From: Eledone cirrhosa
Lineage: Eukaryota
Assembly: GCA_964016885.1 (NCBI GenBank)
Contig: OZ024743.1
Location: 215,512,001 to 215,576,000 of the forward strand
DNA length: 64,000 nucleotides
Reading direction: 5' to 3'
The notes beneath the pieces are model-generated. The model was not told the DNA's origin. It made no database searches and saw only the letters and a list, made by a program, of their open reading frames with translations. Made by a program: the position numbers and the translations under genes. This document shows, in pieces, positions 6,288 to 61,161 of this stretch; positions within the stretch are counted from its first letter, which is position 1, and each line of letters opens with the position of its first letter.

Positions 6288-6626
6288 TATATGTACATGA
6301 GCATAAACACATATATGGGAGTTGTGTCTTACTTCGCCATGTTTTGCTCGATAAATGAATGAAATAAACAATCATATATACATACATACTTACATATATG
6401 TATATATGTATATGTATATATATATATATAGATACATACTTACATTTAAGTAAGTGCCATACTAAGAGTGAGAAATGAAATTTCGTTTTCATTTTTTTTT
6501 CAACTAATCGTTTTCGGTATGCCTGACCGATTTAACTCACTCAATATGCAAATTAGGCTGCTCAGCCGTTAATTTTCATAAGGAAAGTATATACTTTCGA
6601 ACGTTCAACTATCTGGCAGATGGGTA

Positions 6627-6671
6627 AACGGTGCTGATGATAGCTAACAAGCTTGAAACTAGTACATCGTT
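6627..6671 (+). ncRNA. Minimal type I hammerhead ribozyme, unit 1
   Basis: aacggtg-CTGATGA-t agct aaca agct t-GAAA-CTAG-TA-catcgtt: 7 bp stem I, 4 bp stem II, palindromic stem III ACTAGT. Predicted cut is GUA after 6664. Confidence 0.85.
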
Positions 6672-6856
6672 CCTGTGTCAGTGTTGAACAAAAAGGTGAC
6701 GTGGTTGCCTTAACACCGTATGGCATAAATTCAGGCTGTTCGCTTTGTTGACAAACAAACGAACAAAGCGGCCGGCGTTATAATAAACGTAGGCTAAACT
6801 GATGCGTGCATATATGTATGTGTACCTGTATGCATATGTGTATATGTGTATGTATA

Positions 6857-6902
<46 letters not shown>

Positions 6903-7138
6903 TGCTACTGTACGTCTGTATACATATATGTATGTACGTATACATACATACTTACATTTAAGTAAGTGCCATACTAAGAGTGAGAAATGAAATTTCGTTT
7001 TCATTTTTTTTTCAACTAATCGTTTTCGGTATGCCTGACCGATTTAACTCACTCAATATGCAAATTAGGCTGCTCAGCCGTTAATTTTCATAAGGAAAGT
7101 ATATACTTTCGAACGTTCAACTATCTGGCAGATGGGTA

Positions 7139-7183
7139 AACGGTGCTGATGATAGCTAACAAGCTTGAAACTAGTACATCGTT
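7139..7183 (+). ncRNA. Minimal type I hammerhead ribozyme, unit 2
   Basis: Same sequence as unit 1; CTGATGA at 7146. Confidence 0.85.
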
Positions 7184-7368
7184 CCTGTGTCAGTGTTGAA
7201 CAAAAAGGTGACGTGGTTGCCTTAACACCGTATGGCATAAATTTAGGCTGTTCGCTTTGTTGACAAACAAACGAACAAAGCGGCCGGCGTTATAATAAAC
7301 GTAGGCTAAACTGATGCGTGCATATATGTATGTGTACCTGTATGCATATGTGTATATGTGTATGTATA

Positions 7369-7401
<33 letters not shown>

Positions 7402-7641
7402 GCATGCTACTGTACGTCTGTATACATATATGTATGTACGTATACATACATACTTACATTTAAGTAAGTGCCATACTAAGAGTGAGAAATGAAATTTCGT
7501 TTTCATTTTTTTTTTCAACTAATCGTTTTCGGTATGCCTGACCGATTTAACTCACTCAATATGCAAATTAGGCTGCTCAGCCGTTAATTTTCATAAAGAA
7601 AGTATATACTTTCGAACGTTCAACTATCTGGCAGATGGGTA

Positions 7642-7686
7642 AACGGTGCTGATGATAGCTAACAAGCTTGAAACTAGTACATCGTT
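7642..7686 (+). ncRNA. Minimal type I hammerhead ribozyme, unit 3
   Basis: Same sequence; CTGATGA at 7649. Confidence 0.85.
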
Positions 7687-7871
7687 CCTGTGTCAGTGTT
7701 GAACAAAAAGGTGACGTGGTTGCCTTAACACCGTATGGCATAAATTCAGGCTGTTCGCTTTGTTGACAAACAAACGAACAAAGCGGCCGGCGTTATAATA
7801 AACGTAGGCTAAACTGATGCGTGCATATATGTATGTGTACCTGTATGCATATGTGTATATGTGTATGTATA

Positions 7872-7902
<31 letters not shown>

Positions 7903-8141
7903 GCATGCTACTGTACGTCTGTATACATATATGTATGTACGTATACATACATACTTACATTTAAGTAAGTGCCATACTAAGAGTGAGAAATGAAATTTCG
8001 TTTTCATTTTTTTTTCAACTAATGGTTTTCGGTATGCCTGACCGATTTAACTCACTCAATATGCAAATTAGGCTGCTCAGCCGTTAATTTTCATAAGGAA
8101 AGTATATACTTTCGAACGTTCAACTATCTGGCAGATGGGTA

Positions 8142-8186
8142 AACGGTGCTGATGATAGCTAACAAGCTTGAAACTAGTACATCGTT
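8142..8186 (+). ncRNA. Minimal type I hammerhead ribozyme, unit 4
   Basis: Same sequence; CTGATGA at 8149. Confidence 0.85.
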
Positions 8187-8371
8187 CCTGTGTCAGTGTT
8201 GAACAAAAAGGTGACGTGGTTGCCTTAACACCGTATGGCATAAATTCAGGCTGTTCGCTTTGTTGTCAAACAAACGAACAAAGCGGTCGGCGTTATAATA
8301 AACGTAGGCTAAACTGATGCGTGCATATATGTATGTGTACCTGTATGCATATGTGTATATGTGTATGTATA

Positions 8372-8402
<31 letters not shown>

Positions 8403-8643
8403 GCATGCTACTGTACGTCTGTATACATATATGTATGTACGTATACATACATACTTACATTTAAGTAAGTGCCATACTAAGAGTGAGAAATGAAATTTCG
8501 TTTTCATTTTTTTTTTTCAACTAATCGTTTTAGGTATGCCTGACCGATTTAACTCACTCAATATGCAAATTAGGCTGCTCAGCCGTTAATTTTCATAAGG
8601 AAAGTATATACTTTCGAACGTTCAACTATCTGGCAGATGGGTA

Positions 8644-8688
8644 AACGGTGCTGATGATAGCTAACAAGCTTGAAACTAGTACATCGTT
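8644..8688 (+). ncRNA. Minimal type I hammerhead ribozyme, unit 5
   Basis: Same sequence; CTGATGA at 8651. Confidence 0.85.
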
Positions 8689-9141
8689 CCTGTGTCAGTG
8701 TTGAACAAAAAGGTGACGTGGTTGCCTTAACACCGTATGGCATAAATTCAGGCTGTTCGCTTTGTTGACAAACAAACGAACAAAGCGGCCGGCGTTATAA
8801 TAAACGTAGGCTAAACTGATGCGTGCATATATGTATGTGTACCTGTATGCATATGTGTATATGTGTATGTATATATATGTATATATATATATATATATAT
8901 ATGCATGCTACTGTACGTCTGTATACATATATGTATGTACGTATACATACATACTTACATTTAAGTAAGTGCCATACTAAGAGTGAGAAATGAAATTTCG
9001 TTTTCATTTTTTTTTCAACTAATCGTTTTCGGTATGCCTGACCGATTTAACTCACTCAATATGCAAATTAGGCTGCTCAGCCGTTAATTTTCATAAGGAA
9101 AGTATATACTTTCGAACGTTCAACTATCTGGCAGATGGGTA

Positions 9142-9186
9142 AACGGTGCTGATGATAGCTAACAAGCTTGAAACTAGTACATCGTT
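9142..9186 (+). ncRNA. Minimal type I hammerhead ribozyme, unit 6
   Basis: Same sequence; CTGATGA at 9149. Confidence 0.85.
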
Positions 9187-9371
9187 CCTGTCTCAGTGTT
9201 GAACAAAAAGGTGACGTGGTTGCCTTAACACCGTATGGCATAAATTCAGGCTGTTCGCTTTGTTGACAAACAAACGAACAAAGCGGCCGGCGTTATAATA
9301 AACGTAGGCTAAACTGATGCGTGCATATATGTATGTGTACCTGTATGCATATGTGTATATGTGTATGTATA

Positions 9372-9404
<33 letters not shown>

Positions 9405-9709
9405 GCATGCTACTGTACGTCTGTATACATATATGTATGTACGTATACATACATACTTACATTTATATATATATATATATACATATATATGTATATGTGT
9501 ATATATATATGTATATATATATACATATATATATATGTATATACATATGTACGTATGTATATATATATATATGTATATATGATTATTTATTTCATTCATA
9601 TATATATATATATATATATAATGTAGGAGGTGAGTTTTATTGTAGTACAATAAAGCAATGCAGATATCGGATAAGAAGCACTCTACAGTTTGTCGGACTG
9701 GAGTATACA

Positions 9710-13712: not shown

Positions 13713-16700
13713 TAGTAATAATAACAAATTTGAAGACTAAAATCCAAAGAGGGCTCGATAAGGATAAATATATATCAAATATATAAGAACCGTAGAGCAA
13801 ATATTTATTAAAATAACAGATTAAGGTTTAAGCAAAGAATCGCTGCTTTCATCCTTAACGGGATCTTCTGAAACTAACAAACTCAATCTGTAAACGCAGA
13901 AGTGGATATTTCAAAAAAAAGTTGCAAACGGAGGAAGACAGGAAGACGATACTTTGGTTCGTGGAAACGTTCCCTGGCAAAGAACGGGAAAAAACGATTA
14001 TAATACGTCATTAAGAGGAGCGGTGTAAAACAATTACGCGCAAAGACAGAACCACGTATGCTATAAGAGAGGTCGTAGACTAATGTTCCATTAGGTGGTT
14101 CATAGAGACGATCTCTGGCAATGAATGAAAAAAACGAAGATAATACGTCATATATGGAAAGTGGAGAACAATAGCACGCAATGATAAAACCACGTAAATG
14201 GTATAGCAGAAGTCGTAGACTAAAATTCTAAGTAGGAGACCGAATGAATCTCCGCTACAGAGTTAAGAACAAAGTAAATAAATACAATACAGAAGTAATA
14301 GAAATAAATACATACACGCAAACAAAATACGTACATACACAAGCATACGCACAACACTTACCATCGGTATACAAAACCACGCACATATAAATATGTGTGT
14401 GTGTGTATATGCATGTATACAGATAAATAAATAATGATATAAACGTATATAAATAAATAAATACGTATATAACAAGCGCAAACACATACATACATGTAAA
14501 TACACGAATATTCGGAGACGTAAGTCAACCAAAACATGAAGTACACATATACACACACCCTACATACGTACGAACCTGCATACTCACACAGACGCAAAAC
14601 TCCCGTATACACATAGCCAAACCATATGTACCAGAATATATAAAATTATACGCCATAACATAAACAATCAAATATACGTACGAGAAGGTATACGTACCTT
14701 CACAAAACATACGGGTAATATATACTTACCTATGTAAATAAGTAAAGGAATAAACAAAACATATACTTAGCTCCCACATCAAGACGTAAAATATCCACGT
14801 ATAAATCGTACTATCCGTTAGGGTATAACGTGGGGCTGTAATACAGGAAACTTTTGTGCAATTTATGTTTACAAGCCGAAATTGCCTCAGATTTTTTTGT
14901 TTAAGATGTGGTCTGTGGCGTAGAGTATTTCCAGGGCCTCAGCGGCGCAGAGGTCACATGGTCTTTTATTTCCGTTATACGATCTAGCCCGAGCTAGGAG
15001 CTCCCAGTGTAACTTATATTGGGTGTGGTTGTCTTTTAGACTCCATATATAAGCTGAAAGTGACGTCATATTCCTTCGTAGAGGGTAACGAAAAGAATGG
15101 GTATGCATGTAAAAACGCTGCTTGAATCTATTGGCGGTTAACCCTATGTAGGCCCTACGGGACGTGGGTGTTACAACCTTACATTTGTAGACAATGTTAC
15201 TAGAGAGGCATTTCCCAGATAGGGGGCAATCAACCCGATTCCTACAATCACAGTTAGTACTAACTACAAGGTTGCACGTGTTCCTACGGCCAGGTAGTTT
15301 AGGTAAATTTGAAGCTGTGATGTTATGTGCAAGGTTAGGAGTCGTAGAGTAAGAAATTTTAATAGTATTTCTATTAAACATTTTACTATATTTATGTGTA
15401 GGGGAAAATGCTTCGTAATAAGCGAAAGAAAGATCTTAGCTAATGGTGTGGCCACCTCCATATTATATGGTGGGTTATACCAACAAATGCGACGGGATCT
15501 ATTTCTTCTAGGTCTATTTTCGTACTCTGTATATGCTACCTTATCGACAAATCCACTTCGAGCAAGAGCTTCATTGTAATAAGTGGAATGTTCGTTGAAA
15601 ATACGCTCGTTGGTGGAAAGAAGGGAATCCCTCAACGAAACATTTCTTATCAGGTTCTTGGTTATGCTGGCAGGATGGTTGGAATGCTTACTTATGTAAT
15701 TAAGCGTATCAATCGGCTTTCTATACCGGCAATTCAACCCATTCAATAAATTGAGGGTAACGTCGAGGTAATTAACGACCGAGAGTTGGCCTCAACCTGT
15801 ATAGAGAGGTTGAAGCCTTTAAAGAAGGCTGTGAGTTATTTTCTGAACCTGGCTCTAGCACGAGCTCCGCACTTAGTCATGGTCAAAAGACCATCGTCAC
15901 GGTTCAAGCCACCGCCCGCGTTGGGGAATTCGTCTTTGATAGAGAAAAGAAGGAAAAGGCCAATAAGATCAGTAACCTCCGCAGTATCACTGGCGCCCAT
16001 ACTCACGTCGAATGGGGTACTATTGGATTTTTTAATCCAAATAGAGTCGTCGAAATTAATCACCGACTTTCGGGCATTGAGGGTGACATCAACTTCGAAA
16101 TCCTTAACCACTGTGAGTGTTTTAGCGAAATTGATAGCTCTAAGGAGAAGTGGTAAAGTGATGGAGGAGTAGTAATTGTTGATGTCGAATTGGATAAAAC
16201 GGCAATGTTCCTTGTTACATATGCCGTTGAACCAATCAATCACCGCGAAAGAATTGTTCCACAGTGCAAGAGGGGCCAAACTTCTAATTGCAGGTATAAT
16301 TCTATCAAGAATCGTTTTACTAAGTCTACCTAAATCGGATTTCGTAGGGTTAATAAGCCGAATAGAGGGGTTGTTCGGATAATTGGATTTGTGATCCTTC
16401 AGGGAGAAATAGGGTCCAGAGGTTCGGTCCGGTCCAGTGTGTTGAGATCAGATGTGATTTTAAACCCAGCATCTTTGATTTCATTGATGACGCACAGATT
16501 AGTTTTACGGTAATCCTAAGTTACAGCATTATGTAGTAGTTGATGGTAAGTACTGCGCTCCACTTGATATAGGTTGCCAGTTTTGTCGGAATGGACGTGC
16601 ACGGCATTAGAATCCATAATAGAACGAATTCTATTCTTCAGGTCTTGCTGGAAGGAATTGCCCCTATTCCGATATTTGATACTCCGAATGAGTTCCAAGA

Positions 16701-25184: not shown

Positions 25185-25230
<46 letters not shown>

Positions 25231-25233
<3 letters not shown>

Positions 25234-25970
25234 ATAAATGAAGAATAAGAAATAGAATGGTCTGTAATGCGAAGAAATACCTATGATGGCTAGTAGACCA
25301 CTGATGACGAATATCCTGGCTTCTATTTCTAATTCTTCAATTATCATATATATACTATTTGCATCAGCACAGATCGCGATTTTTCATTCATATATGCTTT
25401 CCCCTTCCCTCTGACCTGTCTTTTTCTCTTCCCTTACTGCTATCCTCTTTCTCCCCCCACCCCCTTCTCTCCTTCTCCCACTTCCTTTCACTCACCCCCT
25501 CTGCTAGTCACCCTCTCTCGGCTAGCCTCTTCCTCACACTTTCACTCACTCACTCTCTGCTACTCACCTTGTCTCTCACTTCCTCCATCCTCCCACACCG
25601 TACGGGATTCTTTCCTTGCTCACATCCGCACGGCCAAGATGTGTCTTTGCCTTCTCGTCAATATTCGCAAGGTCTTATGTTCATAATGAATTATTGATTT
25701 GATTTTCTCATGTTTTCCTCTCTTTACGTTGCCTCACCATTCGTATTTGTTTACCTGTCTCTCTTTCTCCACCCAACTATTTTTATCCCAATAACTTAAT
25801 TTAGTTATTGTATCGCCCTAGCTTGAGGTATATGGTCTGTAATGCGAAGAAATACCTATGATGGCTAGTAGACCACTGATGATGGATATTCCTGGCTTCT
25901 ATTTCTACTTCTTCATTTATTATATATATCCTATATGCAACAACACAGCTCGCCATTTTTCATTCATATA
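25231..25970 (+). mobile_element. Non-coding retro-element: 575 bp unit with ~135 bp terminal direct repeat and short 5' inverted piece
   Basis: 25258-25393 repeats at 25833-25969. The body is pyrimidine-rich, 25231-25257 is the reverse complement of ~25897-25922, and the flanks are TA. Confidence 0.75.
25789..25890 (+). ncRNA. Candidate rearranged (pseudoknotted, kink-turn) hammerhead ribozyme
   Basis: Stem III AGGTAT/ATACCT next to GAA, H17 = A25832, stem I TGGTCTG/TAGACCA directly before CTGATGA(25876). Kink-turn extension CTAGCT-T-GA / TAT-GA-T-GGCTAG. TCGC/GCGA helix. Covaries with the 31.4 and 61.0 kb copies. Confidence 0.6.
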
Positions 25971-26016
25971 AATATATATATACATATGTATATATATATA
26001 CAGAATGAGATGGAGG

Positions 26017-31593: not shown

Positions 31594-32340
31594 TTGATTG
31601 TAGTGTTTGTCAGTTACATTGAAGATACCAGAACTAGAAATGTAATTTGGTATTCACTTCCAATATCATTAGGAATTAAGATATCTTTAGCACACCAATT
31701 CTTTAAAGCTCTAGATAAATGTTTTCAAAAGTCCCACAAGCACCCCTCCAATGTTAACTGGGATACATTCAAGCTCTCTTACTCTCCAACTATGAATGTA
31801 ACCCAGAATATGGCAAAAATTAATAATAGGAATTTAAAAGTAAACCTAACTGAAGTAAACACAAGTAATAATAACAATGTAATTAATAGCATTAGAAATA
31901 ATAATAATAGCGAGTACATGAATAATAACATGGTATCTTCAAATAACAATTTAAGAAAATGTAATTGCAGGAATTACATCTTATGCCCACTACAGAATAA
32001 TTGCCTAGATAGAAATTTAGTATACAAATGCACCATAAAAACTAGGGATAAGCTCTATATAGGAGCAACTTCTGCAGACTTTAAACGATCGGATAAAGAA
32101 TTCTCAACCAACTATCACAACTAAGTTGGACTTTAAAAGACAATAACACTGACTATTCAATCTCCTGGAGAAAAAATTCGAATGCGCCAGTTTACCAAAA
32201 CTCGGCACTCTCACGAATTTGTGAACTTTGTATTAAAGAAATCTTTCATATAATTACCAATCCTAGTAATATTATTAACAAAAAAAAAGGAAATATTTAA
32301 TTCTTGCTTGGTTCTCCAGGACATTTTACAATGTTTATAA
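31594..32340 (+). pseudogene. PLE C-terminal fragment (linker + GIY-YIG)
   Basis: RNVIWYSLP, KLSYSPT.N, CNCRNYILCPLQNNCL..NLVYKC..LYIGATSADFKR, downstream CELC. Confidence 0.85.
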
Positions 32341-60015: not shown

Positions 60016-60245
<230 letters not shown>

Positions 60246-60295
60246 GAGAAAAACGTGCTGCAGGGTTGCTAATGGGTTACATATGAATAAAGTTA

Positions 60296-60393
60296 GTCCT
60301 TCATCAGTGATTTTCCAACCATCATTGGTATTGCATCGCTTTAAAGACCATATACCTCCGGTTGGTGCGAGCAACGGCTAAAAAAAGTCGTTG
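60296..60393 (-). ncRNA. Candidate rearranged hammerhead, copy with GCAA core mutation
   Basis: The minus strand has a perfect CCAACC/GGTTGG helix and the kink-turn, but GAAA is changed to GCAA and stem I has a mismatch. Confidence 0.5.
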
Positions 60394-60982
60394 GGACACG
60401 TATATAAAGGGAACACGAGTGTAAACAAACAAAATGGTGAAGCAACGAAAAGTGAGGAAGAAGGAGTCAAGTCCCAAATTTCTATGAATTTAAATTCGGT
60501 GAAATCGTGAACGAGAGAGAATAAAGACCATCAAACCTGGTTGGAATGTAAGCAAGGAAGGAATTCCGTACAGGTCTAACGGGAGGAAGAAGGGATCTAG
60601 TCTGTGATTTCGGTGAACGTAAGTTCTGTGAAATCGTAGACGAGAGAGAGAAAAAAAGCGACCTGCCAGACCAAGGGTGCGAAAGAAAAGAATTACGCAC
60701 AGGTCAAACGGGAAGAAGGAGGAGGAGGAGAGGTAGTAACAGAGAATGAGTGAGTGAAGGGTGAGGAAGAGGTTAACAGAGAGATTGACTGCTAGAGAGG
60801 GTAAAGATACAGAGAAAGAGGAAGCAGTAAGAACGAAATAGACGTCTAACAGCGGGGAAAAAAATATGTGTAAATATGAGAAAAACGTGCTGCAGGGTTG
60901 CTAATGGGTTACATATGAATAAAGTTAGTCCTTCTTCACCATTTTGTTTGTTTACACTCGTGTTCCCTTTTTTTACGTGTCC

Positions 60983-61080
60983 CAACGACTTTTTTTAGCC
61001 GTTGCTCGCACCAACTGGAGGTATATGGTCTTTAAAGCGATGAAATACCAATGATGGCTGGAAGATCACTGATGAAGGAC
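60983..61080 (+). ncRNA. Candidate rearranged (pseudoknotted, kink-turn) hammerhead ribozyme
   Basis: GGTAT-A|TGGTCTT..GCGA-T-GAAA-TACC-AAT-GA-T-GGCTGG-AAGATCA-CTGATGA(61069)-A. Confidence 0.6.
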
Positions 61081-61088
61081 TAACTTTA

Positions 61089-61161
<73 letters not shown>

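Follow-up and report, generated by a model that had tools for sequence, protein, structure and literature searches.

Insertion ends of a non-coding Penelope-like element in Eledone cirrhosa accumulate at the predicted cleavage site of an S-G-C hammerhead motif

The window, a 64,000-nt stretch of the Eledone cirrhosa genome (contig OZ024743.1, positions 215,512,001 to 215,576,000), carries a 713-bp insert at 25258-25970 with (TA)n on both sides. The left flank is a (TA)n target tract (25186-25230) that overlaps the AT-rich end of an inverted arm, and the right flank is (TA)-rich (25971-26000). On the forward strand the insert consists of one full unit (25258-25832), numbered here u1-u576 from the predicted cleavage site and with one base missing, and of a second, partial unit (25833-25970) that covers u1-u138/139 and ends at the second of two 3' ends preferred in the family counts. 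Part of this partial unit, 25930-25970 (forward strand), represents the Penelope-type 'tail'. The first base of the insert is T25258, whose counterpart in the complete downstream copy is T25833, adjoining A25832 of the AUA triplet; the upstream repeat thus begins directly after the equivalent of the predicted H17, as a first-pass annotation had stated. The unit is 576 nt long, not 575 nt as given there, the spacing of 575 between the repeats arising because one base is missing from the upstream copy. Where both copies are present (u1-138), 11 of 138 aligned columns differ and there is one gap. The unit is pyrimidine-rich and its longest ATG open reading frame has 43 amino acids.

The inverted arm lies on the reverse strand at 25225-25257. 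It matches the downstream copy at 24 of 27 bases over 25231-25257 and, extended to 25225, is identical to 25897-25929 at 30 of 33 bases; by the segment map it is a copy of u65-u97 that ends at the first preferred 3' end (u97). The earlier description of these 27 nt as an inverted copy of the element's own tail is therefore right as to the inversion and wrong as to the tail, since the arm is not derived from the terminal 42 nt. A25257 is the final base of this arm, which leaves a 1-nt ambiguity at the junction, as the annotated position 25257/25258 already allowed. The first 50 positions of the insert (25258-25307, forward strand) represent the half of a putative upstream ribozyme that lies in the 3' cleavage product, with the 5' strand of stem I, GAAA and CUGAUGA, while the strands of the S block are absent. 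Elsewhere in the window are a head-to-head copy of a second family, B, with its own S-G-C motif (60230-60938, reverse, and 60934-61098, forward; arms running from about u45 to u122 of the next unit and from u536 to u73; predicted cut at 61025/61026), a 500-bp unit repeated six times head to tail at 98% identity (6427-9465), and broken remnants of Penelope-like reverse transcriptase/endonuclease at 14923-16548 (reverse) and 31951-32261 (forward), identified by tblastn against locus ORFs.

The element belongs to the non-coding, Penelope-like repeats and sits in (TA)n tracts. In the 3.0-Gb genome 258 places match a 24-mer taken 3' of the site exactly, 3,400 spaced matches were obtained with a looser core pattern, and 407 with a pattern designed for diverged families; the controls, reversed in the first two cases, gave 0 throughout. 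In metagenome and viral contigs the family pattern had 0 matches. For family A, to which the insert belongs, 120 loci were mapped, 36 of them top matches to a junction-spanning query and the others from the first 100 of the 258 places, and after removal of duplicates and of segments below 84% identity 143 segments were retained. For family B, with a unit of about 632 nt, 56 loci were mapped. Units range from 576 to 634 nt across families and occur mostly as dispersed 1-2.6-mers with Penelope-type junctions, tandems reaching 1.9 units in family A and 2.6 units in family B. The segment maps show copies that are 5'-truncated, that form partial tandems, that often have an inverted 5' arm and that carry the tail on one end; partial tandems, truncation and the inverted arm are described as Penelope hallmarks in the text of PMC8557442. 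Two 3' ends prevail in each family: u97 (56) and u139 (44), 42 nt apart, among the 143 segments of family A, and u73 (40) and u122 (22), 49 nt apart, among about 75 of family B. Head-to-head inserts that join one long and one short end make up 16 of 27 in family A and 8 of 12 in family B. According to the text of PMC11167929, it is two internal reverse transcription start sites that produce the 'tail' of Penelope-like elements (PLEs), and the present pattern of ends is in keeping with them.

The predicted hammerhead of the window is assembled from three blocks on the forward strand. The S block (25826-25838) comprises a stem III strand (25826-25831), H17 (A25832) and a stem I strand (25833-25838), with the predicted cut at 25832/25833; the G block (25848-25857) comprises position 11.1 (25848), GAAA (25849-25852) and the 3' strand of stem III; and the C block (25870-25883) comprises the 3' strand of stem I (25870-25875), CUGAUGA (25876-25882) and position 10.1 (25883). 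Both core strands, CUGAnGA and GAAA, are thus present in the window copy, and the motif-pattern rows used below were selected on these two strands themselves. The block order, site to GAAA to CUGAUGA, is S-G-C, a non-circular order with crossing stems, and not one of the circularly permuted orders C-G-S, G-S-C and S-C-G of types I, II and III. An Rfam scan of the whole window gave 0 matches at the gathering score. Among 251 copies the cleavage triplet is AUA in 187, AUC in 38 and GUA in 14, and the A15.1-U16.1 pair is kept in 248; the non-A variants of H17 in the exact set of family A (n=18) are 17 C, 1 T and 0 G.

The secondary structure was evaluated on alignment A1, which contains 25 gap-free rows hand-picked from 300 motif copies that represent at least four families, and in which GAAA is invariant, the rows having been chosen for it. 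The model contains stem I, stem III, a distal stem III helix, a further pseudoknot helix named Pa and a single 10.1-11.1 pair. The 5' strand of the distal helix (25818-25823) pairs with the segment preceding the 3' strand of stem I (25863-25868), with compensatory changes in 5 of 6 pairs, and strand 'a' of Pa (25813-25817) is predicted to pair with 25843-25847 (4 of 5 pairs in the window copy). Over the whole model 86.4% of cells are paired and 16 of 23 pairs are compensatory, against 29-49% in slid-partner controls, a comparison in which the structure is favoured because it was derived from the same 25 rows and in which related rows easily exceed shuffles. Stems I and III are 88.7% and 88.8% paired, with 4 of 6 and 4 of 5 pairs compensatory and with covariation in four families. 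The least supported of the helices is Pa, with 77.6% pairing and compensatory changes in 2 of 5 pairs, for one of which CpG decay on both strands could account. A 5-bp stem II of the conventional kind does not hold up, its pairing of 43.2% being no better than that of shuffles (43.3%), and only its 10.1-11.1 pair holds, in 21 of the 25 rows (CG, UG, AU, UA) and in 171 of the 251 copies, while a C-A mismatch is found in 66 of 251, including the window's upstream copy. Minimum-free-energy folding, which is blind to pseudoknots, recovered only the extended stem III (z 0.45). The covariation supports the view that the ribozyme core is under structural selection. Stem II has been reduced to one pair, and its role is likely taken over by Pa. 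The motif thus has the looks and the conservation of a hammerhead, yet the usual stem II is lacking. The first-pass annotation of the junction mentions neither this nor the non-circular block order.

Some recurrent features were left outside the model. In several families CUGAnGA is followed, in shifting registers, by a short hairpin that starts with GGA (25884-25892 in the window, and homologues), and a UAA-N-G linker, itself part of the selection pattern, recurs after stem I; hairpin and linker are possible partners in tertiary contacts. Older families (C, D and others; loci L265-L293, L107:567-655, reverse, and L203:5354-5442, forward) have GUA triplets and a G10.1-C11.1 pair, and are likely to be better suited to activity assays than the younger ones.

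For a single junction, the prior chance of lying this near to a given site is roughly 1 in 100 to 1 in 300, and the window's junction was picked post hoc. When the 5' junctions are tabulated across copies, as the first-pass annotation had proposed, they show an excess at the predicted cut in each of three lineage groups, and it falls off sharply on the 3' side. This excess of 5' ends is genome-wide and base-precise, and the population counts lift the window's junction above chance. Among the 131 segments of family A that contain the last u1-24, 11 have their 5' end 0-4 nt upstream of u1, where 1.79 are expected from the hazard elsewhere in the unit (Poisson P 3e-6), and this is the top 5-nt window of the unit. 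With the window's own copy excluded, 10 ends remain (P 2e-5), and within a strict 0-2 nt window 5 remain against 1.09 expected (P 0.005). Genome-wide, patterns for family A recovered 9 junctions in 12 rows at the A preceding the site, against no clean one among the 8 control rows at u17; exactly at u1 there were 0 in 18 rows, loci L025 and L084 being found outside that pattern, and the peak lies one base upstream of u1.

Family B shows a 2-3-fold peak over controls with a sharp 3' edge. On the 3' side, junctions make up 9 of 13 rows at u16, 4 plain ones of 32 at u5 and 6 of 7 at u2; at the site and upstream of it they make up 21 of 26 at u1, 25 of 26 at -1, 13 of 17 at -2 and 9-11 of 24 at -8. 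The count at u1 differs from the control mean of 7.5 with P 4e-5. All junction rows from pattern lists, in whichever group, were sorted by eye, and some of those of family B are the two arms of one locus or likely duplicates. The family-B pieces that end at u1 are mostly short (73-126 nt), and in two loci (L161/L162 and L264) both arms end there.

The third group consists of lineages with an AUC triplet, whose template reads TATC. They have 14 junctions at u1, about 0.9 being expected per position; 12 of the 14 lack the templated C, 2 have it, and 8 lie directly on (TA)n. The first AUC set (26 rows) contains the 12 u1 junctions without C, 9 AUA-lineage rows, 4 point variants and 1 small deletion, and the second set (3 rows) contains the 2 junctions with C and 1 deletion. 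At u2, 4 of 11 rows are junctions, and 358 rows read through; the latter serve as a denominator only, as the degenerate base of the intended control included the consensus. The base preceding u1 in the 12 junctions without C is A in 7, T in 4 and G in 1. Since these templates lack TATA and still have ends at u1, the ends correspond to u1 itself and TATA is not needed. A true end one base 5' of the cut, considered for the family-A peak, was dropped on this ground, and the frequent A before the site would most likely derive from an AT-rich joining partner.

An explanation without cleavage would make the peak a joining artefact, produced by TATA or ATGG microhomology with (TA)n or with the element's own strands, or by fold-back at a palindrome. 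We consider this improbable. In four of the 11 family-A ends at the site the flanks are indeed TA-ambiguous, and AT or ATGG microhomology is used in several of the others. Family B moreover has a fold-back hotspot close to the cut on its 3' side, an 8-bp palindrome (u5-u12) to which 27 of the 32 rows at u5 belong; these represent 17 loci, 10 perfectly head-to-head and 7 partial, so that sequence-driven hotspots do exist beside the site. The fold-backs may be trimmed cleaved ends or an independent hotspot. There is also a lesser cluster of 5' ends at AT-rich u79-u99. Microhomology does not account for the AUC lineages, however, where only 2 of the 14 ends carry the templated C, nor for the sharp fall from u1 to u2 (21 to 6 in family B, 14 to 4 in AUC lineages) or for the two loci in which both arms stop at u1. 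The prediction of the site came from the ribozyme core and made no use of the junctions, and a reverse transcriptase moving 3' to 5' would have opened all helices before it reached u1. Small internal deletions with their 3' border at or near the predicted cut were also encountered (L344, L355, L157 and two C6 rows of the u2 pattern), and they look as if the reverse transcriptase had jumped over a cleaved site to upstream sequence.

A fixed 5' end of the RNA could also have another origin, if u1 were the transcription start of an internal promoter and full-length cDNAs ended there without any cleavage. Capped templates often leave an extra G, and G rarely precedes u1 (1 of 14 AUC-lineage junctions, 4 of 21 in family B), so that no extra G of the cap type is evident. 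Internal pLTR promoters are described for Penelope elements in the texts of PMC11167929 and PMC8557442, and the higher stop rate of family A at its upstream site, given below, fits a fixed RNA 5' end of any origin. The start site would, however, have to coincide with the cut of a hammerhead core that has covarying stems and a conserved NUH triplet, and we regard this explanation as very unlikely.

Most copies extend beyond the site: in family A 125 of 131 do so at the last site and 13 of 18 at the upstream one, and at the upstream site of family B all 20 tandems do (0 of 20 stop). Cleaved RNA would therefore be a minority template. The first-pass annotation had taken the inserted cDNA to come from an RNA whose 5' end was made by self-cleavage, and had named randomly distributed ends, many of them past the site and with no enrichment, as the outcome that would speak against it. 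Ends beyond the site are indeed the majority, but the enrichment at the cut is there, and together with a core that appears to be under selection it sustains the idea of a self-cleaved end for part of the copies. A minority cleaved template fits the text of PMC11167929, in which cleavage is not required for insertion in vitro, and that of PMC4209133, in which PLE hammerheads are weakly active. It is likely, on the sequence evidence, that the S-G-C hammerhead cuts RNA in living cells, in a minority of transcripts, at 25832/25833.

The repeats within one insert are more alike than those of different inserts (divergence of 5.7% against 7.3% in family A and 4.6% against 9.0% in family B), and they have rare variants in common 5-8 times more often. 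Discordance at subfamily sites within inserts is 32 of 141 and 61 of 438, against 46%. At most 10% discordance is found in 8 of 15 tandem inserts of family A and 6 of 21 of family B, and at least 30% in 5 of 15 and 3 of 21. The 8 family-A inserts look copied from one unit, while the 5 and 3 inserts with at least 30% discordance imply that two different units were copied. In the window's own repeat pair the differences are mostly private changes, which favour neither a single unit nor two.

These figures bear on the possibility that, in the manner of non-LTR retrozymes, the main template is a monomer re-ligated into a circle, around which the reverse transcriptase runs repeatedly and sometimes stalls at the ligation junction. 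We regard it as possible but doubtful; it still needs cleavage but gives the 5' end another meaning. A circle agrees with the closeness of repeats within an insert, including the 8 family-A inserts of low discordance, with the fact that nearly all copies span the junction, and with tandems of 1.9 and 2.6 units, and animal retrozymes do form circles according to the text of PMC7229834. The within-insert concordance is, however, explained equally well by homogeneous tandem source loci, and a circle does not provide the two units from which the discordant inserts were copied. A circle also predicts an equal stop rate at each pass, whereas family A stops in 5 of 18 cases at the upstream site and in 6 of 131 at the last site (Fisher P 0.004).

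Taken as a whole, the evidence makes it probable that the junction in the window is the 5' end of a self-cleaved RNA, and that the insert is a Penelope-type, non-autonomous element, probably descended from Naiad elements, with a new variant of the SGC hammerhead. In this mechanism tandem loci would be transcribed into multimeric RNA, and the ribozyme would fold as a multi-pseudoknot of stem I, the extended stem III and the single 10.1-11.1 pair stacked on Pa, the folded form cutting only partially. A Penelope-type reverse transcriptase, supplied in trans, would nick both strands of a (TA)n tract and start at two internal sites, u97 and u139, one per strand. At this locus the u139 arm would have extended for 714 nt, passing a 3' ribozyme that was uncut or re-ligated, and come off where the upstream cut had left a 5'-OH end, and the u97 arm would have stopped after 33 nt, the arms then being joined head to head.

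The 3' region of the element resembles published Naiad 3' ends by eye, and the family is therefore likely Naiad-descended. In the text of PMC8557442, Naiads are said to lack canonical hammerheads and eight are marked 'HHR_half_core', Obim being unflagged. About nine records of its supplement were inspected by eye at their ends, two ostracod ones without a clear reading. The consensus ends of Naiad_Obim, Naiad_Ovul, Naiad_Smim and Naiad_Esco read as S-G-C hammerheads, and the nematode record before Naiad-1_Nbra (Parc) reads as a C-S-G hammerhead with full stems; Esco and Parc are named by file order, as the records before Naiad_Adux and before Naiad-1_Nbra. Of the four S-G-C records, those other than Obim carry only the 'HHR_half_core' flag in that source. 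By the same inspection Naiad_Obim and Naiad_Ovul are like family C in having the extended stem III, a helix of the Pa kind and certain short motifs, and they resemble family A in the bases upstream; unlike the element here, they have a linker of 1 nt and a Pa helix that reaches 11.1. Naiads are 3.4-4.4 kb long in this source and encode EN-RT, whereas the present family is non-coding with units of 576-634 nt. Cephalopod Naiads survive as remnants only, according to the same text. Genome searches with Naiad-type motif and ORF patterns, degenerate patterns that make weak tests, gave 4 family-C matches and then 0, 0 and 0, and the sampled element loci, likewise a weak test, contained no Naiad motif.

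Reverse transcriptase could be supplied in trans by a young and very abundant PLE whose open frame has 821 aa (150 scored matches at 97-100% identity, 55,518 candidates; L295-L324, L188:1730-3700). Its C-terminal end is GIY-YIG-like, and by its motifs we take it to be Hydra-like. As a partner that shares the ribozyme it was rejected, its terminal hammerhead being an ordinary type I with a palindromic stem III. Pfam recognised no family in four PLE-like ORF pieces. At two loci (L192, L067), same-strand PLE fragments upstream of the motifs were considered and set aside, as they are not contiguous with them and (TA)n tracts lie between.

Non-circularly permuted hammerheads have so far come from unassigned environmental sequences. 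The text of PMC10085705 contains no SGC example from the genome of a known organism, and the role of hammerheads in PLEs is called unclear in that of PMC8557442. We lean slightly towards a broader reading, in which such hammerheads would be a common part of animal retroelements and the 'missing' ribozymes of Naiads (SGC in octopus, squid and spider, CSG in nematode), the form that evolved in this genome having a one-pair stem II kept in place by a new pseudoknot helix; cleavage would take place in the germline and the pile-up would record the cleaved transposition template. With the family described here the SGC permutation passes from environmental RNA contigs to animal chromosomes, in thousands of copies. 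The genome-wide excess of ends at the predicted cut makes cleavage in vivo directly testable and suggests that cutting is partial. A hammerhead architecture without a normal stem II is offered for structural work. The findings also suggest that ribozymes of one class are overlooked by standard descriptors, and that permuted hammerheads are hidden behind the published view of Naiads as lacking canonical ones. The literature search, with most subscription journals outside it, returned no report of SGC or CSG hammerheads in animal retroelements, nor of insertion ends that accumulate at the hammerhead site of a PLE.

Among known hammerheads the closest are those of type SGC (HRIMA-1 and variants; Eckert et al. 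2023, PMC10085705), with which the present motif has in common the block order, a pseudoknotted core and an NUH site. In the SGC hammerheads of that study, according to its text, stem II has several pairs, about 3 nt link stem I to stem II, and the far sides of these two stems are joined by a helix. The element here has instead a one-pair stem II, 10 nt between stem I and GAAA, a GAAA-side strand that pairs with the 5' segment (Pa), and the distal pairing of an extended stem III in place of the joining helix; unlike them, it is found in thousands of copies in an animal-type genome, inside a retroelement.

The non-LTR retrozymes of animals (Cervera and de la Pena 2020, PMC7229834; Li et al. 2026, 10.64898/2026.07.22.740005) are likewise short, non-coding, one-hammerhead units that occur in tandems, and the origin and mobilisation proposed for them in these texts lie with PLEs, as here. 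Their hammerheads, however, are of type I, their units are mostly 150-450 bp and their circles are demonstrated, whereas the units here are S-G-C, have 576-634 nt and are mostly dispersed; no type I hammerhead in short tandem units is found in this family. With PLEs and their non-autonomous derivatives, as presented by Craig et al. (2021, PMC8557442) and Frangieh et al. (2024, PMC11167929), the element shares truncation, pseudo-LTR tandems, an inverted 5' copy, a 30-50-bp tail on one end, two reverse transcription starts, (TA)n targets and a hammerhead near the 3' end. The PLE hammerheads described in the text of PMC4209133 are type I, whereas this element is S-G-C and has no ORF. Finally, in the text of Frangieh et al. 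(PMC11167929) none of the RNA reads is reported to end at the cut, the position at which insertion ends accumulate here.
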